IMG/VR virus record: IMGVR_UViG_3300032285_003360
Coordinates: 1 to 64,000 of that record
Length of the DNA: 64,000 bases
DNA from: a virus
Reading direction: 5' to 3' (one strand)
Positions 3,334 through 26,062 of this stretch are shown in pieces; position 1 is the stretch's first letter, and each line of letters starts with the position of its first letter. Under the pieces are notes generated by a model that saw nothing but the letters and a program-made list of their open reading frames with translations, was not told where the DNA came from and ran no database searches. Position numbers and translations under genes: made by a program.

Positions 3334-3710
3334 TCTTCTTCCCAATTACAACGTTCATAAATTATTTGCGTCATCTCCGCTTCAACATCAATACCAGTCC
3401 ATGCGTTATGTTGTAAATCTGAAATGTATCCACTTATCTCAGGACTAAACATCATAACTATAACTTCATCAATTTTATATTGTATAAAATTTGGACTATA
3501 ATCTGTTAGTTTATCTCTAAACAATTTGGTCATGATAACAATCAACATTGAATATCTTGGTTCATATAAATTGTTATTTGTAATGTGGTTATATGTTTTA
3601 TTTAATACATCAATCAATAACTCTTCATTGATTGCGTCAACTAATAAACCAGTTTGTTCCCAATCTACTTTTGATTCTTTATCATTAAAAAATTTAAACG
3701 CTTTTATCAT
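3330..3710 (-). CDS. FKF-tagged protein with degenerate gp23-like C-terminal segment
   Basis: MIKAFKFF; FSPE....SDL.....GIDVEAEMTQII. Confidence 0.7.
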   Translation of the reverse strand: MIKAFKFFNDKESKVDWEQTGLLVDAINEELLIDVLNKTYNHITNNNLYEPRYSMLIVIMTKLFRDKLTDYSPNFIQYKIDEVIVMMFSPEISGYISDLQHNAWTGIDVEAEMTQIIYERCNWEEE

Positions 3711-4186
3711 TAATTAAAAAATTTAAATGATTCACGATGTTCTATTGAACCTGTTACATATTCTCTTCGTATTGGTTGTGTTGTTACCCAAAGCTCATGA
3801 TTGTATTTGTCTCTCGCATCAACTATTTTTTTAAACCAATATCTCGCATATAAATCCGAACCACCTTTGTTGTGAATATAATGATTAGTATTTGATGGCG
3901 TTAATAATTTTATACTTTCAACATCACCTCTCCTATGAATATGATTAAAGAATATTATTTCATCATTGGTATATGGATTAGTTTCTTCAGGTTTATGATA
4001 AGTTTGTTGACCATAACTACCGTTCCTAACCATAACATAAGTGCAGTTCTTGATGGCTTCGTAAGTTACTTTATAGTATTTGTAATCTTTTGAATTAACT
4101 GACATTGTAACAATTAAAAGCACTAAACCGCATAACAATAATGCTACCGCGATAGTTAATAATATTGGAATTGTAGGGTTATTCAT
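3710..4186 (-). CDS. Membrane-anchored protein with C-terminal FKF tag
   Basis: N-terminal hydrophobic helix; ends RESFKFFN; related to 4510..4977 (M.NPTI start, I.FF, YIH, Y.KK/NK). Confidence 0.8.
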   Translation of the reverse strand: MNNPTIPILLTIAVALLLCGLVLLIVTMSVNSKDYKYYKVTYEAIKNCTYVMVRNGSYGQQTYHKPEETNPYTNDEIIFFNHIHRRGDVESIKLLTPSNTNHYIHNKGGSDLYARYWFKKIVDARDKYNHELWVTTQPIRREYVTGSIEHRESFKFFN

Positions 4187-4195
4187 GGCATAAAT

Positions 4196-4510
4196 TTAAT
4201 ACAAATCTTCTGAATACAAAATTATTTTTTTTTCTTTTGTTTGTCCTGCTTCAAATGCGATAAGAGCCGCTTCTTCTCTACCAACAAATCTGTTATCACT
4301 TGTCAAGAAACCTTGCACATAATCGCCTGATTCACTGTCTCTTAGACCTGTGATAGCAACTTTTTGATATATGCAGTTAGGATGTCTCCATCCACAAAAT
4401 ACAATACCTTTATTCACATTGTATGGGCCGAATCCTCTTGGTTCCAATACTTCCGGTTTCAATAACGGTAGTTCTTTATACCATATTGCGGCGCATAATA
4501 TTGATATCAT
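4196..4510 (-). CDS. Conserved phage hypothetical protein (no tag)
   Basis: CAAIWY...G.RH..C...QGFLTS.NRFV.REEA...LYSEDLY, a motif I recognise from phage hypotheticals. Confidence 0.75.
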   Translation of the reverse strand: MISILCAAIWYKELPLLKPEVLEPRGFGPYNVNKGIVFCGWRHPNCIYQKVAITGLRDSESGDYVQGFLTSDNRFVGREEAALIAFEAGQTKEKKIILYSEDLY

Positions 4511-4977
4511 TAATTTAAAAATTTGAATTCTTTTTTTGGTTCCTCAGCTCTGAATGGTCGCATATAAGCATCATGTCTTAGTTGTGAATATCTTTCTCTC
4601 ATTTCTCTCCAATTGTATATGTCAACCTTTTCATCTCTCAATTTACAAAACTTATTATAATAATACCAACGAAATAAATTACCATACCTCGTAGATTTAT
4701 GTATGTAAAGATTCTCATCTAATTTTAAATCTCCGTCGGGAAAAAACACGATACAATCACTAACCGGTATGAACTCTACTCTACGTATATCGTAATCATA
4801 TAATCTAAAAAGACTACCATGACCAACATGAGGTTCATATTTATAAACATCACGATTCATTAATTTATAAATCTCCCTATACTTCTGAAAGTCAGGTATT
4901 GATTGTAAATGAAGACCTCCATATATAAAGAAGGATATCCCTGTCAGTATTTCTACTACGATTGTTGGGTTGCTCAT
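4510..4977 (-). CDS. Membrane-anchored protein with C-terminal FKF tag
   Basis: N-terminal hydrophobic segment; ends KKEFKFLN. Confidence 0.8.
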   Translation of the reverse strand: MSNPTIVVEILTGISFFIYGGLHLQSIPDFQKYREIYKLMNRDVYKYEPHVGHGSLFRLYDYDIRRVEFIPVSDCIVFFPDGDLKLDENLYIHKSTRYGNLFRWYYYNKFCKLRDEKVDIYNWREMRERYSQLRHDAYMRPFRAEEPKKEFKFLN

Positions 4978-5300
4978 AACGAATATATTATTTTTAGTTT
5001 AGCTTTTCTTCTAATGAATCTCGAAGCCACCTGACGCATATTGAAAACGATGCAGGAATCAAAATAGCCGGTTTCTTTAATAAAGATTTCATATAATGTT
5101 GGTGTTGTCCCTCTTGTTAGATTATAGAACTCCAAAATATTTCCATTGAACTCCAATAAATTACTATCATCCCCATCATAAGGATATTCGCTCCATATGA
5201 AAACCAAATGCTGATTTCTATTGAATTGATTTTTTAATTCAAAAAGACTAATCGATTTTCTTGGTTTTTTAGATATTTGTAAAAATTTAAATTCTTTCAT
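4974..5300 (-). CDS. FKF-tagged small protein (MKEFKFL)
   Basis: ORF track; FNGNILEF subfamily motif. Confidence 0.8.
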   Translation of the reverse strand: MKEFKFLQISKKPRKSISLFELKNQFNRNQHLVFIWSEYPYDGDDSNLLEFNGNILEFYNLTRGTTPTLYEIFIKETGYFDSCIVFNMRQVASRFIRRKAKLKIIYSL

Positions 5301-5309
5301 ATTATTTTT

Positions 5310-5834
5310 TTATATTATATCAGGAAAATTATACATAGGGTGACCGTAAATTATTCTTTGTCCTTCAACTATGTTTCCACTAACCACACTTCTCATCAAC
5401 ATAACCTTATATGGCACATATGTTTCCTCATCATATCTAACTTCCGACACATCATGAAAATCAAAATCTTCTATATTATAATATTCAGGATATGTTTCAT
5501 CTATTGGTGGATTGGGATTTACATTTCTAAAGTTTTGACCTGTTCTATTACGACGTTCCCACCATGCATGCCATCCTCTGTTCCATAACTCCGCAGGTAT
5601 TGGATTAATATGTGGATTATTGTAATTGGCATCTCGTGCTGCTTCCCATCCTCGGATGTATACTTCCATATCTTCTATTGGACCGTCTCTCAATTCTCGT
5701 GGCATCATATTCCAATGACGACGTGATATACCTTCTGGTGGATTATCAGGAACATACGGTTCATAGTTCCAATACCAATCCTCGTCAAGAATTGTTTTAT
5801 CGTTTGATTGTAAAAATTTAAATCGGTTTATCAT
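5310..5834 (-). CDS. FKF-tagged two-domain protein (RMF-like plus 398/8339-type domain)
   Basis: MINRFKFL; YIRGWEAA.....NP......LWNRGW; C-terminal FDFHDV...SVVSGNIVEGQ. Confidence 0.75.
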   Translation of the reverse strand: MINRFKFLQSNDKTILDEDWYWNYEPYVPDNPPEGISRRHWNMMPRELRDGPIEDMEVYIRGWEAARDANYNNPHINPIPAELWNRGWHAWWERRNRTGQNFRNVNPNPPIDETYPEYYNIEDFDFHDVSEVRYDEETYVPYKVMLMRSVVSGNIVEGQRIIYGHPMYNFPDII

Positions 5835-5835
5835 A

Positions 5836-6303
5836 TTATCCTCTTCTTTGTAAATTAACTAAAGGAACACTAACACGATATCTTTGCGGTGGTGTGTTGT
5901 GTGTTGTTATTTCATAAAGTATGTGCATCATCCCACCAATATTGATACCACTAATAATGGTTAGTAATGGATTATCAGGTTCTCCAATTAAAATTTGATT
6001 ATATCCTCTCCAATATAAACGATGTTGCATTCTTCTTCTTACAATATGGATAACTTTGCTGTCATATCTGTTCACCATGTTTACAGGTATTCGTATATAA
6101 CCTGCGGGTATAAACTCAGGATCTCTCACTATTTCTTGAACTCTATGCGATAATTCCCCTAAAGTGGTTCTGTTATATAGGTCTGAATTAATAGGTCTAT
6201 CATAAGCATTTGGGAATGGAATACCGCCAAGATGATAATCATCCAACGCATCCATCCAATCGGTGAATACTCTTTCCTTTTCAAAAAATCTAAACTTCTT
6301 CAT
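5836..6303 (-). CDS. FKF-tagged protein (MKKFRFF)
   Basis: ORF track; K-to-R variant of the tag. Confidence 0.8.
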   Translation of the reverse strand: MKKFRFFEKERVFTDWMDALDDYHLGGIPFPNAYDRPINSDLYNRTTLGELSHRVQEIVRDPEFIPAGYIRIPVNMVNRYDSKVIHIVRRRMQHRLYWRGYNQILIGEPDNPLLTIISGINIGGMMHILYEITTHNTPPQRYRVSVPLVNLQRRG

Positions 6304-6595
6304 TGTATACTATACTATGGTCTGTTATAAATGGTGTAACTCTACCCATCGATATCCAATACGTTACTCTAATATTAGCATCTCTAATTGGGAATACTTT
6401 AACAACTGCACCAGCTAATTCGCCATGTTGATATGTTACTTCAGCAATAACGTATTGAGCATCCTCAGTTGATATACTTTGGCCGCTTCTAAATCTTCCA
6501 GCAACATATTCAACAACAACCCTAATGGCCATCTGAGACCATTCACCATCATAGCTTGTTAGATTGTTATCTTTGAAAAATTTAAATAATTTCAT
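6290..6595 (-). CDS. FKF-tagged protein (MKLFKFF), paralog of 106..411
   Basis: Direct alignment, both 101 aa. Confidence 0.85.
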   Translation of the reverse strand: MKLFKFFKDNNLTSYDGEWSQMAIRVVVEYVAGRFRSGQSISTEDAQYVIAEVTYQHGELAGAVVKVFPIRDANIRVTYWISMGRVTPFITDHSIVYNEEV

Positions 6596-6909
6596 CGTGT
6601 TCTCCTCCTTCTTTGTTTTTCAAACCATTCATTATATTTGTCTAGTTTGTCTTGTCCTTTCCAAATGTCAATACACCAATAAGCATTTTGTTTATGTTTA
6701 AAATACCATAAAGCTTCGTGGTCTGGTTTGAATTTAAATCCAAACCTTTTATCAACTATTCTTGTTACAATGGTATACTTTGGAATAACTTTACCTGAAG
6801 GTGATGTCATTCGCTCTTTATTCACGGTATAAAACCATTCATCGACATTGATGTCATGCCCATCATGTGATTTCACTAAAACAGTTGAAAAAAACTTAAA
6901 CGATTTCAT
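6592..6909 (-). CDS. FKF-tagged protein (MKSFKFF)
   Basis: ORF track, tag. Confidence 0.8.
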   Translation of the reverse strand: MKSFKFFSTVLVKSHDGHDINVDEWFYTVNKERMTSPSGKVIPKYTIVTRIVDKRFGFKFKPDHEALWYFKHKQNAYWCIDIWKGQDKLDKYNEWFEKQRRRRTR

Positions 6910-7264
6910 AATATATTCTTAGTTTTTGTTCTTTTTTAATTCTTCTTCTATTATATGTAAAATAATCATGGTCACCTCTTAATTGCCAATGTCTCCAACC
7001 TCGTGAATAAAAATGAATCACATGAATCAATGGTTTCCTAAAATTAGCATACCAACACATTCTTGGGTGATTTATTACTGTTTCTCTGAATTCAATAAAT
7101 GTTCCTTCAAATATTTGCATATCAGGAATATTTGTGAAAAGTTCACATGTTGTTGCAAGTTTTAATGACGCACAAGTTTTAGTATTATGTCCTATTGTGT
7201 AATCAATCCACACATAACCATAGTCTCTTTCTTGTCTCTTCACTAAAAATTTAAATGGCTTCAT
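6896..7264 (-). CDS. FKF-tagged protein (MKPFKFL)
   Basis: ORF track; FEGTFIEF subfamily motif. Confidence 0.8.
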   Translation of the reverse strand: MKPFKFLVKRQERDYGYVWIDYTIGHNTKTCASLKLATTCELFTNIPDMQIFEGTFIEFRETVINHPRMCWYANFRKPLIHVIHFYSRGWRHWQLRGDHDYFTYNRRRIKKEQKLRIYYEIV

Positions 7265-7267
7265 AGT

Positions 7268-7789
7268 TTATATGAATTTTTTATTTTTAAATTTAACTTG
7301 TGATTTTTTAAAAAAAACCAAAACAACAGTTCTACTTCCTTTTATAATTTTAGTCACTTCATGTTGAAGCATTGAATTAAACATAAAACAATTGCCAGTT
7401 TTTTTGTTTAAGGTTATATGTTCACCATTTTTTAAATCAATTATTAAATCCCCACCCTCGTAATCATCATTCAATAGTAACCCAACACTTAATAATCTAT
7501 TATACGCGTTATCATCATGCTTACCAAATTTATCGCCAACGTCATATTTTTGTAAATAAAATTCTTTTTGAACCGAACCTTCCCAATCTATGTTGATGTC
7601 ATTTATCCCTTCAACCCACGACATTAATTTATTTAAAACCATAAAATCAGATTTCATTGTTAAAAACTTTGCAGTATAACTTATGTATCCACCGACCTCA
7701 GTGCTGTCTATTGGTTTATCCACATATTTTTGTAATATATTGTTACACTCCTCAGCCGTAAATAAAATATCTTGTTTAAAATCTATCAT
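7268..7789 (-). CDS. 2OG-Fe(II) oxygenase (prolyl-hydroxylase-like)
   Basis: Y..GD.F..HxD, LNDDYEGGDL, HEV..I.KG.R. Confidence 0.9.
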   Translation of the reverse strand: MIDFKQDILFTAEECNNILQKYVDKPIDSTEVGGYISYTAKFLTMKSDFMVLNKLMSWVEGINDINIDWEGSVQKEFYLQKYDVGDKFGKHDDNAYNRLLSVGLLLNDDYEGGDLIIDLKNGEHITLNKKTGNCFMFNSMLQHEVTKIIKGSRTVVLVFFKKSQVKFKNKKFI

Positions 7790-7806
7790 TCAATTTATTA
7801 ATACAT

Positions 7807-8301
7807 TTATTTAGTTATTAAATTTTTCGTTCTACCTCCACCACGATAAGCGGCTTTGTATCTTGGTTCATTTAAACTACTAACCTTGACACCTTCATAC
7901 TTGTTTGATGCATGCACAAACATTGTTTCACCAATGTATGTTCCGCAATGCCAACGAGATGGAGACACTCTACTTCTAAAGAAAACAATATCACCAACTT
8001 GAAGACTATCCTTCTTAACTCTTTCAGTGGTTTCCCATTGAGTCATGCAAGTATTTTCAATTGTGATTTTATAAACGTCTTGAGCTAACCGCTTATTAAA
8101 TTGCGAACAATCAATTCCTTTCTCGGTGCTACCGCCCAATCTATATGGTTTCCTTAACCAATTGATTACAAATGAATTTAACGTGCTATCTTTGGCGAAT
8201 CTTGGAATGGAATCCAAATACCGACTGGTTTGTGCATCCGCTGTCAATACAAGAAGTATTGATACTATTAGAATAGTGATAATGATTATCCTTTTTTTCA
8301 T
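7807..8301 (-). CDS. Secreted NlpC/P60 (C40) peptidoglycan peptidase
   Basis: Signal peptide MKKRIIII...; PY..GG....GIDCS, GDIVFF, HCG.Y.G...FVHAS. Confidence 0.92.
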   Translation of the reverse strand: MKKRIIIITILIVSILLVLTADAQTSRYLDSIPRFAKDSTLNSFVINWLRKPYRLGGSTEKGIDCSQFNKRLAQDVYKITIENTCMTQWETTERVKKDSLQVGDIVFFRSRVSPSRWHCGTYIGETMFVHASNKYEGVKVSSLNEPRYKAAYRGGGRTKNLITK

Positions 8302-8306
8302 ATAAA

Positions 8307-8338
8307 CAAATATACGAAACATTATTCAAATAACCAAA
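8307..8338 (-). promoter_or_regulatory. Bacteroidota sigma-A-type promoter
   Basis: TTTG (8338-8335), 20-nt spacer, TATATTTG (8314-8307), 5 nt before ATG 8301. Confidence 0.7.
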
Positions 8339-8569
8339 TTATATTGGGACTTCTGAAATAGGTGGTAAATGATATAAAAAATCGCCTTCACGAACAACTT
8401 GACCTGAGATAACCTCACCAGTTTCTCTATGTTTATAATATACCCTTTTTTGTGTGGAAAAATCGTATGGGTTATAGATTAAAGGGCCGACCGAATGAAA
8501 TTCAAACTCTTCGGTTTCACCATACTCTTCTCTTATTATGTATGTTCTTAAAAATTTAAAATTATTCAT
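8339..8569 (-). CDS. FKF-tagged small protein (MNNFKFL)
   Basis: ORF track; related to 398..688. Confidence 0.8.
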   Translation of the reverse strand: MNNFKFLRTYIIREEYGETEEFEFHSVGPLIYNPYDFSTQKRVYYKHRETGEVISGQVVREGDFLYHLPPISEVPI

Positions 8570-8573
8570 TTCA

Positions 8574-8903
8574 TTAATGTATAAACAAAGCCCATTTGAT
8601 TATTATTAAATCATTTAGTATATTAAAACCCCATCCAATTCCTTGATTATCAATATTATGTTCAAGGCCATCAGGTCCGGTAATTGAAATGATTGTAACA
8701 ATGAAATGATTCGGGAACTGATTTAAGAAAGAATGAATACCATAATGTCGGTCTGTAACCAATTCATAGTTATATTGTGTTAAATGTTCTATTCGTCCGA
8801 ATATCCAAGATGCTGAATCATCATTTCTTCCGAATATCCATGATGCTGAATCATCATTATATTCCAATAAATCATTATCATGTAGGAACTTGAAAGCCTT
8901 CAT
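8574..8903 (-). CDS. FKF-tagged small protein (MKAFKFL) with internal 11-aa duplication
   Basis: NDDSASWIFGR twice. Confidence 0.8.
   Translation of the reverse strand: MKAFKFLHDNDLLEYNDDSASWIFGRNDDSASWIFGRIEHLTQYNYELVTDRHYGIHSFLNQFPNHFIVTIISITGPDGLEHNIDNQGIGWGFNILNDLIIIKWALFIH
8793..8858. repeat. 33-bp in-frame tandem duplication
   Basis: Two near-identical copies of tccgaatatccaNgatgctgaatcatcatt. Confidence 0.9.
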
Positions 8904-8910
8904 TATAATA

Positions 8911-9177
8911 TTATTCTGGTTTACCGTCTTCTTCCCATTCTTTGATGTTGTTCATTATTACCTCAGTTAGTTCTCTGGTTTTGTCATCCAATAACTTCAT
9001 CATTTCAACATCCTTTGGATTTGTTTCATCCCACACAGCTTCTTCTCTTGCGCCCGAATCATGAATCATATCGTTTAATCCGAACCAACAAGATATTCTA
9101 ATCCTTGCTTCTAATGGTGTTTGCTTTAGCAAATCATTTATCTTATCTGATAATAAAGACTTCCTTGGTTTACTCAT
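8911..9177 (-). CDS. Hypothetical protein
   Basis: ORF track, operon packing. Confidence 0.7.
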   Translation of the reverse strand: MSKPRKSLLSDKINDLLKQTPLEARIRISCWFGLNDMIHDSGAREEAVWDETNPKDVEMMKLLDDKTRELTEVIMNNIKEWEEDGKPE

Positions 9178-9355
9178 TTCTTAAAAATTTGAAGTCCTTA
9201 ATGTTTTTCTTCTTTTCTTCTTCAATAATATCGTTACGGAAATGTTCTCTGATGGCATCCTCAATGGTTTGGTCAGCTTCAGTATCGGTAATCATATTAT
9301 GAATGGCGTTAATCGCATATTGATAAAAATTGGCGAGATAGTTATGTTCCCTCAT
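9170..9355 (-). CDS. Small protein with C-terminal FKF tag
   Basis: Ends IKDFKFLRNE. Confidence 0.7.
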   Translation of the reverse strand: MREHNYLANFYQYAINAIHNMITDTEADQTIEDAIREHFRNDIIEEEKKKNIKDFKFLRNE

Positions 9356-9356
9356 A

Positions 9357-9533
9357 TTATTTAATTTCTATATACTTAATAACTTTTGTTGTGTCCAACT
9401 TATATTTGTAAATCCCGTTCATTGCGTCAATCTGTCCTTTTTTATAACCATCTCTTTTGATAGACTCACAAAGCAATACCCCGAAAATACAAACTACTAA
9501 AATAAAACCAATAAATGTAAATAGATTTTTCAT
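9357..9533 (-). CDS. Small membrane protein (58 aa, not in ORF track)
   Basis: Manual translation MKNLFTFIGFILVVCIFGVLLC...GYKKGQIDAMNG; fills the gap between neighbours. Confidence 0.65.
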   Translation of the reverse strand: MKNLFTFIGFILVVCIFGVLLCESIKRDGYKKGQIDAMNGIYKYKLDTTKVIKYIEIK

Positions 9534-9534
9534 A

Positions 9535-9810
9535 TTATACGTTTGGATATTTTAAAAACCATTCAGTGAATCTATAAAGTAATTTCATTATTACAACGAT
9601 GATGAACATTGGTGCTGTCACAATCCAAAATATTGAGAAGAACAGATATGCTTGTGCATTGTTTTGCCAATCATCAAAATCAGGTTCATGTGGTGGGTCA
9701 TAATCAATACCAATCTTCTTACCGAATAATCTTAGAAAGGTTAAGGTAATCATGAATCCTATTATGTAAATTAATACGTATATCATTTTTAATAATTTAA
9801 GAATGTCCAA
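9535..9810 (-). CDS. Two-TM membrane protein
   Basis: Two hydrophobic stretches. Confidence 0.7.
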   Translation of the reverse strand: MDILKLLKMIYVLIYIIGFMITLTFLRLFGKKIGIDYDPPHEPDFDDWQNNAQAYLFFSIFWIVTAPMFIIVVIMKLLYRFTEWFLKYPNV

Positions 9811-9965
9811 TTACTTCATCTTCTTGTTCAACATAAGATGTTAATGATGGTAATCCACTATATTGACAGATACTTTCGTCACCTACCAATAGTATTTCAT
9901 CAACGTCAAAATATACACCGTTGCTTTCCATATCTGATAATGGTCTATAAGATTGTCCTTTCATA

Positions 9966-10463
9966 TTAATTAAGTGGGAATGGTGAAACAATTACTTTTG
10001 GTTCAATATAAACCGGATGTGGTGTTCCTTCTTTATCTAATAACATTAACCATGTTCCATCGGATGAATTTGGCATGAATAAACCATTTGGTTCAGCTTG
10101 AGGTAATGTAATGTTCCCTTGTTCATGTGTTTCCCATCCTTCAGCAGGTCTTTCAGGATTTGAATATTGTGTTGAATATGGAATACCATAACCAACACAT
10201 TTACCAATGAATACTAACTTACCTTGCATTTCATTATACAAGTAAGCATAATTAACAATCTTCTCATTATCTCTTAATTCGTAGATTTGTTTCAACAACT
10301 TCTTCTCTTGGAAGTTATGAATTGCCGGCATTCCAGTTTCACGTTGTGCTTCGGCCAACATTTGTTTTTGTTGCTGAGCATCCTTTCTATCTGGTGTTTC
10401 TTCAATAGGTCCGCAACTTACTAATAACAATGCGATTAGCGACGCAAATAATACTTTTTTCAT
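9966..10463 (-). CDS. Conserved phage lipoprotein
   Basis: Lipobox LLVSC; GYGIPYSTQYSNP...PQAEPNGLF. Confidence 0.85.
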   Translation of the reverse strand: MKKVLFASLIALLLVSCGPIEETPDRKDAQQQKQMLAEAQRETGMPAIHNFQEKKLLKQIYELRDNEKIVNYAYLYNEMQGKLVFIGKCVGYGIPYSTQYSNPERPAEGWETHEQGNITLPQAEPNGLFMPNSSDGTWLMLLDKEGTPHPVYIEPKVIVSPFPLN

Positions 10464-10469
10464 GTTTAT

Positions 10470-10835
10470 TTATTTTTTGAATTGAATGTGTCCTTGGTCA
10501 AAGTTGTTTTTTAATTCTTGAACGAATGAATAATCATCGTTTGATAATTTGTTTAAATCGAAGTTAGCCATCTCATGTAAAATGGATTGTCTAATAGCTT
10601 CTTTTGCTTGAGGATCTTTCTCTCTTCTATATTCCTCACGCTCTTTGTTTAAGAACTGACGTTTACCTTCCACATAAGATTGTGTTTCCTCAAACACAGT
10701 TCTTTCTGCGTTTTGTTGGGCTTTACCAACGGTCTTAGTGTAACCTACACCGAACCATCCAAATGCTAATGATAATAACATCATTATTATTACGGCACCT
10801 ATGATGGCACCAATTACTGCGAATACTTGTTTCAT
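10470..10835 (-). CDS. Membrane-anchored protein adjacent to the lipoprotein
   Basis: N-terminal TM followed by a charged helical region. Confidence 0.8.
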   Translation of the reverse strand: MKQVFAVIGAIIGAVIIMMLLSLAFGWFGVGYTKTVGKAQQNAERTVFEETQSYVEGKRQFLNKEREEYRREKDPQAKEAIRQSILHEMANFDLNKLSNDDYSFVQELKNNFDQGHIQFKK

Positions 10836-11093
10836 ATTTTGTATTTTAATAATGTAAAAATAAAATTTATTTCTGATATTTTATTCAGTATTTATACTGA
10901 ATTTTAATGACGATTAATTAGATTGTATATTGCAATTATCGTCACGATACCACATAAAAGATAACTAAAATATCCGAAGAAAAAAAATGCGATGATAATC
11001 CATACCCAACCAACCCTCGCATAAGGGTAGTTTCCATAAAATTCTAAATGAAAAACTAATTCATTTTTAATCCATTGTAAAAATTTGTCCATG

Positions 11094-11441
11094 TTATATT
11101 TTTTTTATTAAGTAATAAAGTTTGAATAATAATTTATAAAACCATTGTGGTTTTCTATAGTGAAAGTGGCTATTAGGTCTTTTGGGATATGACCAATGAT
11201 AACCAACCATTTGTTCAAAGAAAAATTTCTTCAATCGCCACCTGACATCTTCCCAAAATGTTAAATCATATAACTCACACATCAATTCTTTATCGTCATC
11301 ATATAAATCCTCGTGATTGATTGTCTTGAAGTAAAAAAGAGTCGTCCCCATTTTACATAGACCTGATAGATGAACATCGTAATGGTTGTTAATCCATACA
11401 AACTTTAATTCGTCGTATCTTAGTGTTGCTATGCGTCTCAT
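11094..11441 (-). CDS. Hypothetical protein
   Basis: ORF track. Confidence 0.7.
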   Translation of the reverse strand: MRRIATLRYDELKFVWINNHYDVHLSGLCKMGTTLFYFKTINHEDLYDDDKELMCELYDLTFWEDVRWRLKKFFFEQMVGYHWSYPKRPNSHFHYRKPQWFYKLLFKLYYLIKKI

Positions 11442-11442
11442 A

Positions 11443-12111
11443 TTATATAATTTTATTTGGTTTTGGAACCATTATAATATCTCTACCGATTCTTGATGTG
11501 TTATATGAATATCTTTCGCTTAGCATATTTGCCGTCTCATTCTCCAAATCATCATACCATTCACCTTCAAATAAAATATAAGGTTTTTTTTCGACAATAT
11601 CTAACCATTCGACCATTCCTTTTATAATATTTGTGTCATGGCCCTCGGCATCAATCTTTATGAAATCAATCTTCCTATCACCAACCCAATCACTAAACTT
11701 AATGCAGTTAACCTCTTCAATAAAGTGTGGGTGAATTTCCATACCATCATGTTGGATTTTGTTATAACCCAAATTAATTTCCGAACATAAGAATTTCTTC
11801 ACTCCATTTTTATCACTGAATCCAATGTTTTCAAATTCAACGATATCATTCCCCGCAAACTTTCTTTTACATTCTTCATAATATAATTTGATTGGTTCAA
11901 CCAAAATTAGTTTACCCAACTTTACTTTTTCCGTTAGACGCATAGATAACAACCCAGTGTTAGCGCCGATATCAACAAAGACATCACCATCTTTTAAACA
12001 GTTAGCCATTGTATCAACACTACCACACATAAATGGTTCGTATATCTCTTCAAATTCTTGTATTGTCATATTATTTTGCATATGCGATGGTATAGTTACC
12101 TTTACCATCAC
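11443..12111 (-). CDS. FkbM-family methyltransferase
   Basis: FVDIGANTG, EP, IDFIKIDAEG; true start may be slightly downstream. Confidence 0.9.
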   Translation of the reverse strand: MMVKVTIPSHMQNNMTIQEFEEIYEPFMCGSVDTMANCLKDGDVFVDIGANTGLLSMRLTEKVKLGKLILVEPIKLYYEECKRKFAGNDIVEFENIGFSDKNGVKKFLCSEINLGYNKIQHDGMEIHPHFIEEVNCIKFSDWVGDRKIDFIKIDAEGHDTNIIKGMVEWLDIVEKKPYILFEGEWYDDLENETANMLSERYSYNTSRIGRDIIMVPKPNKII

Positions 12112-13267
12112 CTTTATAATAAAGTTTATAAAATTTATTTGTAACTGTTAGTAATGGGTCGTTTAACCAATCGCTGTCAGGAACAATATCTAAGTTACCA
12201 TCACCATCAACATCATATGTGTTAATCCAATTAAGCCAACTGATTGATTTGTCAACATTCTCATAACCTGGCGGTGAAACTAATAGAGCTGATTGCACAT
12301 ATCCATTACCACTTTTCTTTAACACTTGAATCCTAAAATCACCGTATTGGTCTTGTGGCACACGCCACGATATTCCAAATGTCCTTGTTACAATTATTTC
12401 TTCAATTCCATCTTTATCAAGGTCAACAAAATCAAAATCGGTTATAATACCCCAACCATCAACAGTTGGTAAATTAATCTGTTTACTAATATCGAATGAA
12501 CCTTTACCGTCACCTAAAATTATTCTATTAACGGTTGTTGAATCTCTTACCCATTCATTACCCCCGATTATGATATCCATGTTACCATCATGATTGAAAT
12601 CAAATGATTCCATCGTAAAACAGTTACTTGTATATGACGCATCAAATATTTTTTTCTTAGTAAAATTACCTTTACCATCATTTAAAAAAGCATAACAATC
12701 AATGTTTTTAAATGATACATTTGGTATAATATCTAAATGACCGTCGTTGTTAATATCGGCCACAACACCCGTGTGATGAAACGCTTGAGTGGAATCAAGT
12801 AAGGATATTTTGTATGATGTTGGTGTGAAATATATAATGTAATTTTTATCACCAGGAAAATCTCCATGGTCATATCCGTGGCCAAATAATACCACATCAT
12901 CATAACCATCTTCATTAAAATCACCTTTCACAATCTTTCTTGTTACAGCTTGTGGAACTTCAAACTGCCATTTCAATTGACCGTCCATGTAAACATAAAC
13001 CACATCGTTAGCAACATTACAACTGCTGATTCTACTTATGATTAAATCGGGCTTTGAATTATTGTTTATATTCAAATAGGTTCTACCGTGCGCACCAGTA
13101 CATGTTATTTGTTGAGACGGTATAAACGCTAACCCACGATAATTTGTGAATGGAACAAAACTTGGTGGTTTTGTTGACTGTTGTGTGTTATCGGTATTAG
13201 GTGAAAGAACATCCTTCTTACAACTGAATAAAGATATTATGAAAAACCCTAATATGATTCTTACCAT
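12071..13267 (-). CDS. Lipoprotein with FG-GAP/VCBS repeats (beta-propeller)
   Basis: LFSCKKD lipobox; repeated D.N.DG..D motifs (DFNEDGYDD, DINNDGHLD, DFNHDGNMD, DLDKDGIEE, DVDGDGNLD). Confidence 0.88.
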   Translation of the reverse strand: MVRIILGFFIISLFSCKKDVLSPNTDNTQQSTKPPSFVPFTNYRGLAFIPSQQITCTGAHGRTYLNINNNSKPDLIISRISSCNVANDVVYVYMDGQLKWQFEVPQAVTRKIVKGDFNEDGYDDVVLFGHGYDHGDFPGDKNYIIYFTPTSYKISLLDSTQAFHHTGVVADINNDGHLDIIPNVSFKNIDCYAFLNDGKGNFTKKKIFDASYTSNCFTMESFDFNHDGNMDIIIGGNEWVRDSTTVNRIILGDGKGSFDISKQINLPTVDGWGIITDFDFVDLDKDGIEEIIVTRTFGISWRVPQDQYGDFRIQVLKKSGNGYVQSALLVSPPGYENVDKSISWLNWINTYDVDGDGNLDIVPDSDWLNDPLLTVTNKFYKLYYKGDGKGNYTIAYAK

Positions 13268-13383
13268 TGTTTATATTTTTACCAAAAATACAATGTTTTT
13301 TGAATATGAACAAATTTTTTTAATCATCTTTGTTCCTTCGATGTCTAACTAATATCATTAGTAATACCATCAAAAACAATATT

Positions 13384-13641
13384 TTAGTGTCTATCATCTT
13401 CTTCTGACATTTTTGCGGTCCTTAACGTAATTGACCCTTTAACTGTCCCATTTAAATCATCGTCCTTTAAACCCCTATCAATACCAACAAATGATGTGGT
13501 TTTAAAACGAATCATTTCGGATAATGTTTGTTTAGCTATCACATCAAGTTGATTGCGATATGCTTTTGTAGTATCAGTCCCCAACAAAGGAGCGTCAAAT
13601 TCAGCCTCAATTTCGAGACTTATTTTGTATTTGAATAACAT
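13384..13641 (-). CDS. Hypothetical protein
   Basis: ORF track. Confidence 0.65.
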   Translation of the reverse strand: MLFKYKISLEIEAEFDAPLLGTDTTKAYRNQLDVIAKQTLSEMIRFKTTSFVGIDRGLKDDDLNGTVKGSITLRTAKMSEEDDRH

Positions 13642-13646
13642 ATATG

Positions 13647-14051
13647 CTATTGGTTTAATAAACGTCTTAAATCGTTTGTAAGAACGTCAGAAACAGTTCT
13701 TATGGTGTCATTTGAATACGTTCTACCTCTTACCCTAATAAGTTCATTAGGATGAAACAACACATTCTCTATTAACCTTCTATCCATTGACAAATATGTC
13801 TGTCCCATATGTTGAATCATATCAACCACGGGCCTACATTCATGACCATATTCATAGAAGAATTCAATGATATTCAAACCACGAACATCAAATGGTTCCC
13901 AATCACCAATTCTGTTCGCATTCGCACCATAAGACCATTCAATTGGCCTACACATGCGGTAATCATCTTGGTCAATATATTGTATCCTTGAATAATAATC
14001 AGGGATAGATATATCGTCACATCTGTCAAAAAACTTAAATTCTCCACTCAT
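13647..14051 (-). CDS. FKF-tagged protein (MSGEFKFF)
   Basis: Tag; GLNIIEFF subfamily motif. Confidence 0.8.
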   Translation of the reverse strand: MSGEFKFFDRCDDISIPDYYSRIQYIDQDDYRMCRPIEWSYGANANRIGDWEPFDVRGLNIIEFFYEYGHECRPVVDMIQHMGQTYLSMDRRLIENVLFHPNELIRVRGRTYSNDTIRTVSDVLTNDLRRLLNQ

Positions 14052-14215
14052 GTTACAAGATATTGGTTTACAATTTTTTCACCATCCATTTCTGTTTTAA
14101 TAACATAAACTTCATAGTCGGTGTAATGTTTGAGTTTTCTCATAGCTTGTTCCAATGATTCGCATTGAATTACTTCACTGCCGACCTCAATGTGGTATTT
14201 GATTTTTACTTTCAT
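14048..14215 (-). CDS. Small hypothetical protein (55 aa, not in ORF track)
   Basis: MKVKIKYHIEVGSE...; ATGA overlap; TAAATTTG 4 nt upstream. Confidence 0.65.
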   Translation of the reverse strand: MKVKIKYHIEVGSEVIQCESLEQAMRKLKHYTDYEVYVIKTEMDGEKIVNQYLVT

Positions 14216-14295
14216 GGAACAAATTTATAAAAAAATTTTAATAATTAAAAAAATAATTCTAAATTCGCAAAACAAATAATTTAAACTTAAAACTT

Positions 14296-14541
14296 ATGGT
14301 AACAGCCTATGAAAAATGGTTGGTTAAACAAGCTGATTTTCAAGAGCTTACGTCAACTGACCCTGAATTAGATGCGAAACAAATTTTTATCGCACAAACA
14401 TTGATTGGTGATTGTATGCAACAAAACCCGCAAGCTTTTGACTTGGTGGCAAAAGTGGGTGATGATGCAGGCTTCACAAAAGAAACCTTCTATAAAGCAG
14501 CAAAAATGGTTATTGATAATGTAAACGGAGTATTAGTTTAA
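14296..14541 (+). CDS. Hypothetical protein (divergent)
   Basis: ORF track; occupies a gap with no minus-strand ORF. Confidence 0.7.
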   Translation: MVTAYEKWLVKQADFQELTSTDPELDAKQIFIAQTLIGDCMQQNPQAFDLVAKVGDDAGFTKETFYKAAKMVIDNVNGVLV

Positions 14542-14921
14542 TATTCGTTATAATATCTCCTATAATCAATTACAATATTCCAATTTTGGAAATTGGGTAA
14601 ATTTTGGTGATCCTCATTTGAAACAAAAGTGAGGACACCATCATCACCATATGGTAATAAGATTAAATCAATTTCAGGAATGTTTGGATATAAAAAATCA
14701 TTATCGGGTCTATCGTTTGTTGCAACCAATGAATTATATGTTGTAATAAAATCTCTTACATTACCCGCATATCTAACTAAAGTATAATAATCAGAATCCA
14801 CACTATCGCTACCCCAAAAAAATGGTTGGCTATATCTTCGACCATCAACTATAGATACTAACACATCATCGTTAGCGTAATTTTTTAATGATGATTCAGT
14901 AAGAAATTGAAATGGTGTCAT
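14538..14921 (-). CDS. FKF-like tagged protein (MTPFQFL)
   Basis: Variant tag; YAGNVRDF subfamily motif. Confidence 0.75.
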   Translation of the reverse strand: MTPFQFLTESSLKNYANDDVLVSIVDGRRYSQPFFWGSDSVDSDYYTLVRYAGNVRDFITTYNSLVATNDRPDNDFLYPNIPEIDLILLPYGDDGVLTFVSNEDHQNLPNFQNWNIVIDYRRYYNEY

Positions 14922-15166
14922 TATTCTTCTTCTAATATAATTCTATCTAATTCTTCATGTCTTAATGCCATGGTTTGACATTCTTCATTATAATCGGTTA
15001 ATAAAACAACTAACCATATTCCCATTTGATATTTCTTTACCTTGATTCTTTCGCCACAAATAAAACCAAGTTCCATTAATCTTAATTTAATACATGGTTG
15101 ACAATCATCACATGGCGTATTTTGCGGAACATCAATAATTCTATATGTTTTTCCAATTGTTAACAT
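14921..15166 (-). CDS. FeoA-domain (SH3-like) protein
   Basis: RLMELGFICGERIKV...ALRHEE..RI; start 15166 via TAATG overlap; CxxCxxC insert. Confidence 0.75.
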   Translation of the reverse strand: MLTIGKTYRIIDVPQNTPCDDCQPCIKLRLMELGFICGERIKVKKYQMGIWLVVLLTDYNEECQTMALRHEELDRIILEEE

Positions 15167-15609
15167 TAAGCTCCAAATAATTTCATTATCCCAATGAATG
15201 TAATAAGACACCCTAATAAAGTCATGTAGATTACCCCGATAGGTTCTGACCTCCAAGTTGCCTTTAAAGCTAATTTAACCCCTGTTCCAAATATTTTAAC
15301 CTTGGCCCATAAAGTTGGATTAACAGTTATGGTTGATGTTGCTTGAAATAATCTAACATGTTCCACACTTCTTAATTCTTCTTCGTTTCTAAGATTCCTA
15401 TCATATAATAATCGTTCTTGTTCTATACTATGATTTTGTTCATGTTGCATTCTATAGTATAGTTCACGATTAGTATGATATAAATGTCTCCTGCGAAGAT
15501 AACCATCAGGGGTATCGTCATTCAATGATGCGGTGGCGAATATTTCACCGCCACCTATCATATCTACAGTTCCTTTTGTGTAGCCACTAAAAAACTTAAA
15601 TGTTTTCAT
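15166..15609 (-). CDS. FKF-tagged protein with C-terminal TM helix
   Basis: MKTFKFF; LKATWRSEPI resembles LRATWRPEPI of 46807..47235. Confidence 0.75.
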   Translation of the reverse strand: MKTFKFFSGYTKGTVDMIGGGEIFATASLNDDTPDGYLRRRHLYHTNRELYYRMQHEQNHSIEQERLLYDRNLRNEEELRSVEHVRLFQATSTITVNPTLWAKVKIFGTGVKLALKATWRSEPIGVIYMTLLGCLITFIGIMKLFGA

Positions 15610-19143: not shown

Positions 19144-19153
19144 ATATTAAATT

Positions 19154-21718: not shown

Positions 21719-21890
21719 TTAATTCTCTTTTAAAAATAAAGATATTATTGTTAACACAAACTAACTCCCAACCATCTTGACCCAACTGATTTAAATGGTC
21801 GTTGGTTGAAAGTGGTCTTGATACGTATTCAAATTTTTTTAAATTATTTTTTTCTTCTTCTGTGTTTTCTTTTTGTGCTTTTGATTTCAT
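21705..21890 (-). CDS. DUF4177-like small protein
   Basis: FEY...LNQLGQDGWELV...FKR. Confidence 0.75.
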   Translation of the reverse strand: MKSKAQKENTEEEKNNLKKFEYVSRPLSTNDHLNQLGQDGWELVCVNNNIFIFKRELNESR

Positions 21891-22407: not shown

Positions 22408-22416
22408 AGTTTAATT

Positions 22417-22725
22417 TTAATCTCCCGAATCAATAGTGTATCCATCGCCACAATACATACAAGTGTATTTGTAATAACATCTACCAATTGTCATTTCTTC
22501 GTAACGATGTTTACATGGTTCACCATCTTTATTTAATGGGACGATTCCTGTTGGGATTGATGATGCAAACATACCTTTTGGTATGCAGTTTTGACAATGA
22601 ATTGTTTGTGTTTCTGCATCATAAGATTTATTCCATCTTTTATGTGATTCAGCATTAACTGCATCGATTGGTTGTCTTAATGTTCCATTACATACTGGAC
22701 AAGTTCCTGTTGGTCTATTGCTCAT
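22417..22725 (-). CDS. Cys-rich (zinc-finger-like) protein
   Basis: CPVC, CQNC, C.H, CMYC. Confidence 0.7.
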   Translation of the reverse strand: MSNRPTGTCPVCNGTLRQPIDAVNAESHKRWNKSYDAETQTIHCQNCIPKGMFASSIPTGIVPLNKDGEPCKHRYEEMTIGRCYYKYTCMYCGDGYTIDSGD

Positions 22726-22916
22726 TTTTATTGTGTTTTAAAATTAAAAGATAAAAATAATTCAAACCCGATAACAATACGACAATACCTGCTAACGTAT
22801 TAATCCAAGGTTTAATAAATGGGTTTTGGGTTTTTAAAATGTCATAACCAACATAAGTTGTAGCTAACCCCGCAATGATTAAAAACACATTGCTTGACAT
22901 AATTTTTTCTAAACGA

Positions 22917-23372
22917 TTACTCATTGTGTATTTTTTTATTTAAATGTTCAATTATACCTTTCATAAAATCCATAACATATTTGTTTGGCTCTTTACCTGC
23001 TTCCATCTCGCTAATTTCTCTTTGGAATTTTTCGCTAACACGTTCAAAGTTTTGACTTTCCATATCTTTGAAAAACTCAACGATATCATCAGTTGGTTTG
23101 AATTCGAAATAAGCATAGGTTGAATCAAAATCATCATCGTAATTTGTAATGTAGTTTGGGTGTGATTCCATTTCAAAGAAGACATCTTCATATGCTTCTC
23201 TGTTACCGCCACCGCATCTTGTGTAAACAATGATTTTACCTGGTTGACCGCTTTCACCTTTTTCGTAATAAGCGTCTCTAAATCTACCAAAGTCTTCTGA
23301 AGTCTTGCCAAGCGAACCAAGGAGATATCCTGCTGCAGGATTCATCCCAAATAGTGTGTTGTATAAGCTCAT
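22917..23372 (-). CDS. Conserved phage hypothetical protein
   Basis: RFRD, YTRCGGGNR, DDDFDSTYA. Confidence 0.8.
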   Translation of the reverse strand: MSLYNTLFGMNPAAGYLLGSLGKTSEDFGRFRDAYYEKGESGQPGKIIVYTRCGGGNREAYEDVFFEMESHPNYITNYDDDFDSTYAYFEFKPTDDIVEFFKDMESQNFERVSEKFQREISEMEAGKEPNKYVMDFMKGIIEHLNKKIHNE

Positions 23373-23453
23373 ATTTGTTAATTGTGTTCCGTAAAACTAC
23401 AAAAAAATATTAATACAACCAAAAAATATTTCGAGAAATTTTAAAAAAAAATT

Positions 23454-23476
23454 AACCCCGCTTTATTGGCGGGGTT
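23454..23476 (-). terminator. Intrinsic terminator
   Basis: AACCCCGC-N7-GCGGGGTT hairpin followed by a T-run on the minus strand. Confidence 0.8.
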
Positions 23477-23482
23477 TCACAT

Positions 23483-23749
23483 TTACTTTTTTGCTAATAT
23501 ATGACCTGAATCTTGGTCAATCACATAAAATGTTCCGTCTTGACCGCGGCCAATGGTGTATCTTGGAGCACCATGACTTCGTGGTGCCATATCAGGTTCT
23601 TGTGTTGGTTCTTCGCCCCCATCAACGGGTTGTTCTTCTTCACCACCCATTTCATCTTGTTCGGTAAAGTCTTTATATTCGGTTGGTAATTGGTCGCCAT
23701 CATAGCTTTCCATCATTAAAACCAACTCAGCTTTAGTATACTTTTTCAT
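23483..23749 (-). CDS. Small acidic late protein
   Basis: TATTTATA upstream; terminator downstream. Confidence 0.7.
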   Translation of the reverse strand: MKKYTKAELVLMMESYDGDQLPTEYKDFTEQDEMGGEEEQPVDGGEEPTQEPDMAPRSHGAPRYTIGRGQDGTFYVIDQDSGHILAKK

Positions 23750-23777
23750 TTAATCCTTTTATTATAAATACCTGTTA

Positions 23778-23876
23778 TTAAGACTTTTTCCCAAACAATC
23801 CTTTTTTCTTTAATTGCTTACGAGAAGCCTTCTCAATCTTCTTGCGAGCAGCCTTTTTTTGTTCATTTTTTGTCAT
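23778..23876 (-). CDS. 32-aa highly basic peptide (not in ORF track)
   Basis: MTKNEQKKAARKKIEKASRKQLKKKGLFGKKS; TATTTATA 3 nt upstream. Confidence 0.65.
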   Translation of the reverse strand: MTKNEQKKAARKKIEKASRKQLKKKGLFGKKS

Positions 23877-24265
23877 GTTTATAAATACATAACAAAACAA
23901 TAAAGACTATTTGGAATCCTCAGATTTAAAGGTAATCTTAACCGCATCTTTTTCCAATTTGGTTAACCTATCTTCTAAATCCTGAATGGTTTCTGCGTAA
24001 TCACTAAGCTTATTGTTAATTATAAAAATATAAATAACACAAAAGATTACGGCTGGTGGAATTATCATTTCCATAAATTATGTTTTTGTTTTTCTTTATT
24101 TTTGGCTTGATATATTGGACGAGCTTCATCCAACATTTTTAAAAATTCTCTGTTTTCAAATTTGTCATTATCCCATAAAGTGGATACACCAAATTTGCGA
24201 GCCCATGCGTTAAACTCTTCAGTTTTTGTTCGAGGTGTAATTAAATTTGCCATGTTATTATTTGT

Positions 24266-24919
24266 TTATCCTATTACTCCTTTTAAATCGTCTAAGTGAT
24301 GATCATCAGCGCCAAGTTCGGAGCCGATTGGCCTCTTCTTCATGGCATTAATTAAATCTTTAAGGTCATATGGCACAAAACCAATGCTACCATCCAATCC
24401 TACGTCCATTCTACGCCCATTACCAAACTTTTTATTGTAAGGTAAGTGACAGTGACCATGAAGGTGAATACGTCCTTTACGAAGCCCATTCCATGAGTCT
24501 ATTGGATAATGCATAAGTTCTAATGTTTCACCCAAATAGTTTAATTGTAAGAACCATTGTGTTGACGCAAATAAACTTTGACAGTTATCACGATTATTTA
24601 GAATGTGATGGTCATGATTACCATATGTCAAATGTATTTCTTGACATATGATTCTATTGCGAAACTCTTGTATTTGTTCGAACCCGCCAAATGACCAATC
24701 ACCCAAATGAATTAATACATCGTCCTGACCAACATGTTCATTTATGTTGTTAACAATCGCCGCATTCATTTTACTTAATGTTTCATACGGTCGCGTTTGT
24801 TTTTCAGGTATGCTACCATCTGGCATTCTCCAATTAGTTACACCACGACATATATTCGTGTGGTTGTAATGTGTATCGGATGTTACCCAAACCTTCCTAT
24901 CGTTATCAATCTTTAACAT
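24266..24919 (-). CDS. Calcineurin-like metallophosphoesterase
   Basis: SDTH, HLGD, GNHD, H, HGHCH. Confidence 0.92.
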   Translation of the reverse strand: MLKIDNDRKVWVTSDTHYNHTNICRGVTNWRMPDGSIPEKQTRPYETLSKMNAAIVNNINEHVGQDDVLIHLGDWSFGGFEQIQEFRNRIICQEIHLTYGNHDHHILNNRDNCQSLFASTQWFLQLNYLGETLELMHYPIDSWNGLRKGRIHLHGHCHLPYNKKFGNGRRMDVGLDGSIGFVPYDLKDLINAMKKRPIGSELGADDHHLDDLKGVIG

Positions 24920-25649
24920 CTTCTAATTCTTTTTTATACTTACTTTTTACATAGTCCACCGCCTCTCTAAACATTTCAATGGTGCACCCTCTTTCTGAAT
25001 GTGGGTCAGAAAATCTTCTAATCATAACCTCATCATCAAATTTAGATTCAGTAATTAATTCAGTTGGATTGAACATCTCAACTTTACCATCTTTTATTCT
25101 ATATTCAACAACAGGAACGGCAATGACATCATCTTCACCAACTTCACTGTTTTGTAATTGACATGTCAATTCTAAGAATGGAAAGACTTCAGCAATTTGA
25201 ATCCAATCGTTATAAACCTCTTCAACTGACGGCCATTTACCAATGTTATAATTACTGGTTCCAATGTTACCATTCCAATCACACCAACCATGTGCACCAC
25301 CAATCCAAGATGAAACAACTTGACTATTTTGTAAATAGGATAAGTTTAACGACTTAATTTCAGATTGCTTTTGTTCTTTGTAACCCCAAATTGATTTGTA
25401 ATCATTCTCCTGAATATTTAATTTCTCCGCAATTGCTTTACTTTCCCCACCATATGATTTATCAGTAATTTCAATATCATAAAAATATTCATTCAATAAT
25501 TTATTAAATGAATGGTCATTAGATGAAAAATACAAATCATCTGTGCGAAGAATAATCTCCATAGCTTGTTCACGTGTTACCGGTTTACCAACAACCAAAA
25601 GTGCTGGCCACTTAGGTAAGTCTAATTCAAAAAATTCTTGTTTTGTCAT
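24906..25649 (-). CDS. Conserved phage hypothetical protein
   Basis: LPKWP, HGWCDWNG, NIGKWPS. Confidence 0.8.
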   Translation of the reverse strand: MTKQEFFELDLPKWPALLVVGKPVTREQAMEIILRTDDLYFSSNDHSFNKLLNEYFYDIEITDKSYGGESKAIAEKLNIQENDYKSIWGYKEQKQSEIKSLNLSYLQNSQVVSSWIGGAHGWCDWNGNIGTSNYNIGKWPSVEEVYNDWIQIAEVFPFLELTCQLQNSEVGEDDVIAVPVVEYRIKDGKVEMFNPTELITESKFDDEVMIRRFSDPHSERGCTIEMFREAVDYVKSKYKKELEDVKD

Positions 25650-26062
25650 TATTTAAAAAATTTAAAGTCCTTTAATTTGTTACCATACCCATTTTGTCTT
25701 CTCCATTCGGTTCTCACTTCATCGGGTGTAAGTGTCCTTTGTCTTGATATTGGTGGTGGAGGTGGAATTGTTCTACCATAATCTGGAATTGCATTTCTAT
25801 TAATCAATCCCATTGTTTGAAACCATCTTCTGTGTCTATCTCCTGTTTCTCTTTCCATTTCTTCCTTTCTTCTTCGTTTTTCTTCTTTTTGTTCATCCCA
25901 AAGAATTAATATTATTACACCACCAATTAATAATGCAACGAATACAGTGCCAATACTCAAGTTACCTTGTTTTCTATGCCAATTTATAATATATAATATT
26001 GACACAATCCAATAGATTGCAAATGATATTATGAAGAAATCTACTATATTATTGTTTGTCAT
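25649..26062 (-). CDS. Two-TM membrane protein with C-terminal FKF tag
   Basis: Start at 26062 behind TACTTTTG; two TMs; Pro-rich linker; ends KLKDFKFFK. Confidence 0.75.
   Translation of the reverse strand: MTNNNIVDFFIISFAIYWIVSILYIINWHRKQGNLSIGTVFVALLIGGVIILILWDEQKEEKRRRKEEMERETGDRHRRWFQTMGLINRNAIPDYGRTIPPPPPISRQRTLTPDEVRTEWRRQNGYGNKLKDFKFFK

Follow-up and report, generated by a model that had tools for sequence, protein, structure and literature searches.

The FKFF tag of an uncultured giant phage lies at the protein end away from the membrane anchor

The same four-residue peptide, FKF[FL], marks many small proteins encoded on one virus contig, and the question raised by this locus is why the peptide (the tag) stands at the beginning of most of these proteins and at the end of a few. 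The stretch that we analysed, called the window, comprises the initial 64 kb of a virus contig of 101,769 bp and ~32% G+C (IMG/VR record IMGVR_UViG_3300032285_003360); by a CheckV-type completeness estimate, the whole contig represents ~31% of the genome. Complete relatives are T4-type phages of 316-336 kb that encode gp23 and a gp21-type prohead protease, and one of them, G002, is 335,630 bp long. Nucleotide and protein searches of GenBank phages returned no match to the lineage at the DNA or protein level, and the lineage is therefore without a cultured relative in that collection. The carriers belong to an uncultured giant phage in which about two dozen small proteins bear the tag, normally at the front end. 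A preliminary description of the window had singled out five open reading frames (ORFs) and proposed that the tag moves to the C-terminus when the N-terminus is a membrane anchor. All five ORFs are present as described, on the minus strand.

We scanned the window in six frames for FKF[FL] and counted the placement of the tag in the called genes. The consensus is F-K-F-[FL], with [RQK]-[GK] often next. The tag is N-terminal in 24 genes, 2-5 codons past the ATG, and C-terminal in four, 1-3 codons ahead of the stop. The N-tagged genes are 22 minus-strand genes within 106-15609 and the plus-strand genes at 46571 and 46807; the count takes in one FRFF variant (5836-6303) and one FQFL variant (14538-14921). 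No internal FKF[FL] was found in any called gene of the contig. From amino acid composition, 0.76 copies would be expected in the whole proteome (32,375 residues), and 0.025 if only the final 10 residues of each gene product are counted. The four C-terminal copies thus compare with 0.025 expected (Poisson P 1.5e-8).

Two of the four C-tagged proteins belong together. The first defines family A (3710..4186, 158 aa): it starts with a transmembrane (TM) helix at residues 8-26 (nt 4109-4165; hydropathy 3.24 on the Kyte-Doolittle scale, 19-residue window), continues into a folded domain that is predicted to be cytoplasmic and ends in a floppy tail; a single residue separates the tag, at nt 3716-3727, from the stop. 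In an AlphaFold2 (AF2) model, a helix spans residues 5-30, an alpha/beta domain spans 32-128 with a predicted local distance difference test score (pLDDT) of 80-96, and the tail, residues 131-158, has a pLDDT of 44-56. The tag lies 1-3 residues from the end in 65 of the 69 homologues and is followed by Arg-Gly in 57 of these 65, and the ~20 residues ahead of it are hypervariable. The N-terminal helix is found in 62 of the 69, the other seven being short calls that start downstream. The second protein (4510..4977, 155 aa; tag at nt 4516-4527, one residue before the stop) is a diverged paralogue, whose hydrophobic segment at residues 6-24 has a borderline score of 1.72 and a Glu inside. Its pairwise BLASTP match to the first is weak (E 0.011); hhalign against the family A profile gives a probability of 83% (E 8.4e-6), and it also aligns in the family A alignment. 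As a paralogue, it is not independent of the first and was counted with it as one family.

The third C-tagged protein defines family B (25649..26062, 137 aa; start at the ATG at 26062, supported by homologues). It has two N-terminal helices, at residues 8-26 (nt 25985-26041) and 35-53 (nt 25904-25960), with scores of 2.16 and 2.75. They are followed by a Pro-rich block that does not vary, a linker that does, and the tag (nt 25655-25666), one residue before the stop. We found 326 homologues, and among the matches listed the tag is near the C-terminus in 120 of 120. An alignment of 55 sequences shows no variation at F133, K134 and F135 and no consensus in the linker ahead of them. The AF2 model is a helical hairpin with a tail (residues 92-137) of pLDDT 50-62. 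The fourth protein, family D (9170..9355, 61 aa), is soluble: hydropathy detected no helix, as the preliminary description had said, and the tag, at nt 9182-9193, has three residues between it and the stop. All 10 homologues end in the tag plus two or three residues.

The mirror layout is found in family C (15166..15609, 147 aa), for which the preliminary description had given a reversed order. It carries an N-terminal tag (nt 15589-15600) and a tail-anchor helix at residues 124-142 (nt 15184-15240; score 2.28). Both elements are kept in the family: the tag lies at residues 4-6 in 34 of the 44 cluster representatives, the other ten being mostly truncated gene calls, and a helix is present in the last 25 residues of nearly all 44. 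The claim that the tag can occupy either terminus thus holds as a feature of the peptide, conserved in homologues of all four layouts.

Of the four C-tagged proteins, three start with a hydrophobic helix, which is clear in two and weak in the third, the diverged paralogue; none of the 24 N-tagged proteins has one at its N-terminus. The tagged end and the helix are associated with a Fisher P of 0.0012 when single proteins are counted (3/0 versus 1/24) and of ~0.012 when families are. We also counted the co-occurrence in G002, which has 20 N-terminal and two C-terminal tags: both C-tagged proteins have N-terminal helices, and they are members of families A and B. The window, G002 and the mirror-layout family C all follow the rule that tag and anchor occupy opposite ends.

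Could the C-terminal copies be chance products of an AT-rich genome, or remnants, without function, of N-terminal tags that were shuffled? The commonest codons are TTT and AAA, and a 15-nt repeat that joins the C-terminal tag of 3710-4186 to the N-terminal tag of the next gene could reflect recombination. However, four copies were seen where 0.025 were expected, and homologues of as little as ~32-45% identity still have the tag, next to a linker that is scrambled. The homologue data refute this explanation, and we give it next to no probability.

On which side of the membrane does the tag lie? We counted Lys and Arg on either side of the helices. In family A homologues, such residues average 0.24 ahead of the helix; in the 15 positions that follow the helix the average is 2.39, and this bias indicates an N-out, C-in orientation. 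Family B has 0.35 before the first helix, 1.99 in the 12-residue loop and 4.54 past helix 2, which favours a hairpin with both ends inside. Family C is tail-anchored, and its N-terminal tag should be cytoplasmic too. By the positive-inside rule, then, the tag takes the end that is predicted to be free in the cytoplasm in all three anchored families. A cleavable Sec signal peptide, which has a positively charged n-region, a short h-region and a cleavage site of the A-x-A type, was rejected for family A: 0.24 Lys plus Arg lie ahead of a helix of ~22 residues, and the positive charges come after it. The proteins instead resemble N-out signal-anchor and tail-anchored proteins, in which a single terminal helix of at least ~19 residues leaves the bulk and the other end in the cytoplasm with a positive-inside bias; the terminal helices score 3.24 (A), 2.16/2.75 (B) and 2.28 (C), with 4510-4977 borderline, and Lys and Arg are enriched on the cytoplasmic flank. 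These known topologies cover the carriers but not the tag, and what is new here is a shared label at the end opposite the anchor. Periplasmic, unconserved or chance-level C-terminal tags had been named beforehand as observations that would speak against the rule; the charge counts, the homologues and the expectation of 0.025 copies point the other way on all three.

Both chain ends show the tag in one and the same N-to-C orientation. At the N-terminus, 2-5 residues precede it; at the C-terminus, 1-3 residues, and up to 9, follow it. These residues flank the tag on its outer side, so the alpha-amino or carboxylate group as such is not what its reader recognises. The preliminary description had called the motif position-independent. 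That is right in that either end is used, but the tag is strictly end-proximal and keeps a single orientation.

The tag might act as DNA or RNA rather than as peptide. We compared 61 tags. Nearly all departures of their DNA from the consensus fall on positions 3, 6, 9 and 12; outside these, only the first position of the Leu codon and two cases of K-to-R/Q differ. Such variation at third codon positions indicates selection on the peptide. Codon usage in the tag is genome-typical (TTT 73%, AAA 77%), and in the six-frame scan every coding-strand FKF[FL] in a real gene is in frame. As far as DNA variation can tell, the tag is thus under selection as a peptide and probably serves as a short handle.

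The C-terminal copies pose the RNA question more sharply: each could mainly be an A/U-rich element that aids initiation or coupling at the next start codon and is merely read as FKFF in the upstream gene. All four C-terminal tags of the window end 4-5 nt ahead of the next ATG. In family B, the next ATG lies 5-8 nt past the tag in 27 of 29 IMG/VR loci (28 including the window), whatever gene comes next. Codon 2 of the C-terminal tag is AAA in every distinct DNA (window, G002 and L002-L031), against AAG in 8 of 28 N-terminal tags (Fisher P 0.004, on sequences that are not independent), and the Arg-Gly codons after the tag often make AGAGG-like purine runs. Lys codons elsewhere in these genes are 26% AAG. 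On the other hand, the motif is in frame without exception and varies at third codon positions, the same peptide recurs past start codons at differing codon offsets, and the N-terminal tag of family C has no nearby downstream start. No copy was found in intergenic leaders or in other coding-strand frames. Moreover, 62% of same-strand junctions overlap or have a gap of at most 5 nt, so any C-terminal feature is expected beside the next ATG. The adjacent ATG is thus mostly a by-product of dense gene packing. We consider a mainly RNA-level origin of the C-terminal copies very unlikely, although the adjoining start codon may impose an extra RNA-level constraint on them.

Several minor features of the DNA at and around the tags were noted. 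Eight same-strand junctions overlap by exactly 14 nt, including 398-411, 675-688 and 1006-1019. The upstream stop is an out-of-frame TAA within the tag codons (TTT-AAR) of the next gene, which accounts for the recurrent C-termini Thr-Ile, Pro-Ile and Asn-Ile. At 3684-3727, the C-terminal tag of 3710-4186 is repeated, over exactly 15 nt and in direct orientation, 29 nt away in the N-terminal tag of 3330-3710, and G002 has a matching pair at 9024 and 9053; this could reflect recombination at tag DNA or a shared codon preference. The apparent extensions of 6-9 residues past the tag in family B loci from IMG/VR are read-through: a single differing base abolishes the stop in the overlap, and the open frame goes on into the next gene. 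At one of these loci (L011 ~10360-10600), the family B gene is followed not by its usual neighbour but by an inserted ORF with an apparent GTG start and the tag at its opening. Programmed frameshifting at the slippery-looking tag DNA was considered and rejected: its codon phase does not fit an X-XXY-YYZ heptamer.

If selection acts on a terminal peptide that is predicted to face the cytoplasm, the tag could be a small aromatic and basic membrane-binding peptide on the inner face, like the terminal helices of MinD and FtsA. The composition is interfacial (Phe, Lys, Phe, Phe/Leu, often with Lys/Arg flanks) and the placement fits. A MinD/FtsA-type amphipathic helix has ~8-15 residues, however. 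The core of the tag has just four, commonly with Asp, Ser or Pro in front, and AF2 shows no amphipathic helix there and no confident helix across the tag. Carriers with TM anchors need no such peptide, and near-invariant exact residues exceed what lipid binding requires. We regard lipid binding as highly improbable.

Head loading is another role known for terminal peptides in T4-like phages. The T4 capsid targeting sequence (CTS) of IPI, IPII and IPIII directs cargo into the prohead core; it is N-terminal only, comprises ~10 residues and is removed by the gp21 protease at [LI]-x-E (PMC3012670). Both systems use a short near-end peptide to label diverse, fast-evolving small proteins, a common label on a variable body, and the lineage is T4-like, its relatives having gp23 and the gp21-type protease. 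[LI]-x-E occurs within 12 residues after 7 of the 24 N-terminal tags, compared with a background of 12%, and two tagged mini-proteins contain gp23 fragments. Yet three traits that define a CTS (N-terminal position only, removal at [LI]-x-E, soluble carriers packed into the head) are not shared by the tag, whose sequence is different. It is used at C-termini as well, 17 of the 24 N-terminal tags have no protease-type site, and families A, B and C are integral membrane proteins, which cannot be packed into a head. The tagged genes also lie in an early-type array of small genes, away from the head genes. Head loading thus seems quite unlikely.

The evidence that remains is best accommodated by a tag that is read at the end of the chain. 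We think that the tag is probably a cytoplasmic, end-proximal docking tag. This reading is carried directly by the placement rule, the conservation, the peptide-level selection, the floppy tails and the positive-inside orientation. The tag would be displayed on a flexible stretch, a few residues from the chain end, in fixed N-to-C orientation and on the cytoplasmic side. Soluble small early proteins would carry it directly after the initiator Met. Where the N-terminus serves as an N-out anchor or hairpin and is absent from the cytoplasm, the tag would move to the cytoplasmic C-terminal tail; in tail-anchored proteins it would stay N-terminal. A single cytoplasmic reader could then meet the same peptide on soluble and membrane carriers. 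Since the tag is never internal and either end is used, the reader most likely must engage a free chain end, and it may be an end-threading machine of the unfoldase, protease or translocase type.

Hubs that collect many proteins through terminal motifs at either end are known from sliding clamps: the T4 gp45-binding C-termini of gp43, gp55 and gp33, and the bacterial beta-clamp and PIP-box motifs. The clamp and PIP-box consensus is QL[SD]LF or Qxx[LIM]xx[FY][FY]. The FKFF tag has no such Gln/Leu pattern and no conserved Gln, the residue ahead of it being D, S, P, T or E, and it is carried not by DNA enzymes but by membrane proteins and by small early proteins that are orphans.

AAA+ proteases read degradation tags at the N- or C-terminus. 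These tags (ssrA-type C-terminal tags, N-terminal ClpX signals, FtsH substrates) resemble FKFF in being short, unstructured tails near a free N- or C-terminal end, on soluble and membrane proteins alike; the tails of families A and B, with a pLDDT of 44-62, have this anatomy. FKFF matches no described degron class that we compared, and lysine-poor bodies, as found in most soluble carriers (see below), are not a known degron correlate. The preliminary description had set aside initiation codon bias, an N-degron and a signal peptide. For start-codon context, a classical N-degron and a signal peptide this is upheld, but the exclusion does not extend to degradation tags generally. FtsH can begin on membrane proteins from either cytoplasmic end, according to PMC13039401, which cites Chiba et al. 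(2002, PMC135282) for it.

The best candidate reader may be the N-domain-less ClpC-type ATPase of the lineage together with ClpP, or else a host AAA+ protease such as FtsH. In G002, the ClpC-type ATPase (670 aa; L037:9705-11717:-) has AAA, AAA_lid_9, UVR, AAA_2 and ClpB_D2-small domains and a VGF ClpP-docking loop at 534-536. It has no Clp_N, the domain that normally takes adaptors. G002 also encodes ClpP (L042:12530-13207:+) with an intact Ser/His/Asp triad, and its gp21-type prohead protease adjoins gp23, separate from ClpP. ClpP is present in 9 of the 10 lineage records that are at least 45% complete. FKFF may accordingly be imagined as a docking handle for the phage ClpC-ClpP, with soluble, lysine-poor carriers acting as time-limited early effectors or as adaptors for host targets and families A, B and C stationing or feeding the machine at the inner membrane; judged from gene content and sequence, this version is doubtful as it stands, and we put it forward tentatively.

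A second peculiarity of the carriers is their lysine content. Pooled N-tagged bodies have 2.8% Lys and a raised Arg content of 7.5%; for 63 small proteins without the tag the values are 8.8% Lys (P 2e-8 by Mann-Whitney test) and 3.9% Arg. The tag lysine could therefore be the acceptor of a lysine-directed modification or conjugation, the lysine-poor bodies avoiding modification off target; its invariance or near-invariance in families A and B would fit. However, the lysine can be replaced: 5836-6303 has FRFF where the G002 orthologue has FKFF, FRFF occurs two further times in G002, and 14538-14921 has FQFL. Lysine content is normal in 5 of the 24 N-tagged proteins, and it is 4.5-7.4% in the four C-tagged ones. 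The membrane-anchored families are not lysine-poor either, the median after the helix being 7.5% in family A and 8.0% in family B. No ThiF-type E1 enzyme was found in G000 or G002. The Arg and Gln replacements and the carriers with normal lysine weaken the case for an obligatory acceptor, which we hold to be unlikely. The normal lysine of the anchored carriers also indicates that the depletion is a property of the soluble carriers and not of the whole tag system.

A number of observations weigh against a docking tag read by an end-engaging machine, or against parts of this reading. Family D has its tag at the C-terminus though it is anchor-free, which makes an anchor sufficient but not necessary for C-terminal placement. 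The topology is a prediction from hydropathy and charge counts, and the inter-helix loop of family B itself bears about two positive charges. The preliminary description had put the tag at the very end of its proteins; in the window 1-3 residues lie beyond it, but the description is too strict, as 47 (39%) of the 120 family B proteins among the matches listed have 4-9. Such trailing residues soften a strict requirement for a free end. The lysine-poor soluble carriers are left unexplained by a degron or handle. Finally, the link between Clp and the tag is a co-occurrence inside one lineage only: the Clp gene was not found on the contig of the window (~31% of the genome), and among six large relatives (G008-G013), five have ClpP while the tag array and family B were not seen in any. 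The contig of G009 begins within the array, and in G002 contig ends are where the array and family B lie, so these absences probably reflect contig breaks in a variable region.

A shared end-tag on dozens of unrelated phage proteins implies a hub, and the anchor rule constrains what the hub can be. It would be cytoplasmic, would read one peptide orientation, would take a tag near but not at the last residue and would accept integral membrane proteins. The rule thus counts against head loading and is in keeping with a machine that engages chain ends. Natural controls are available in the form of tags at either end, soluble and anchored carriers, and K-to-R and read-through variants. Should the reader prove to be the Clp machine of the lineage, an abundant freshwater giant phage group would have a virus-encoded addressing system for proteolysis, that is, a phage-encoded, tag-addressed proteolysis network. 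A literature search on the motif and on lysine-free phage proteins returned nothing relevant, and we found no published description of the tag. New here are the anchor rule and the predicted cytoplasmic side of the tag, its tolerance of residues that trail it, the normal lysine content of the anchored carriers and the candidate ClpC/ClpP reader.

What are the other tagged proteins? On the minus strand, 21 further small N-tagged genes form an array at 106..14921. Their products begin with Met, 1-4 residues and the tag, have no N-terminal hydrophobic helix and mostly have lysine-poor bodies. On the plus strand, two N-tagged genes lie in a glycosyltransferase operon (46571..47235, the second being 46807-47235). 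No Pfam or PHROGs family was assigned to the C-tagged proteins, and a Foldseek search of the PDB with the family A model gave no match at E <=0.001. Across the tagged bodies, only weak or fragmentary matches were obtained, to a ribosome modulation factor (RMF)-like protein (E 2e-4) and to gp23 fragments. The RMF-like match is that of 2474-2761 (N-tagged, 95 aa) to PF04957 and lies below the cut-off; by eye, the tagged proteins 3097-3333 and 5310-5834 have Gly-Trp repeats that resemble those of 2474-2761. The product of 46807-47235 (142 aa) contains a fragment of a T4-type major capsid protein (PF07068 positions 141-198, E 1.1e-11), and a likewise N-tagged protein of G002 (G002:C1:302958-303137) contains a gp23 fragment (E 1.7e-13). 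Within the tagged array, 7268-7789 (173 aa) has, by eye, the look of a prolyl-hydroxylase-type 2OG-Fe(II) oxygenase and starts with Met-Ile-Asp-Phe-Lys-Gln, a partial tag.

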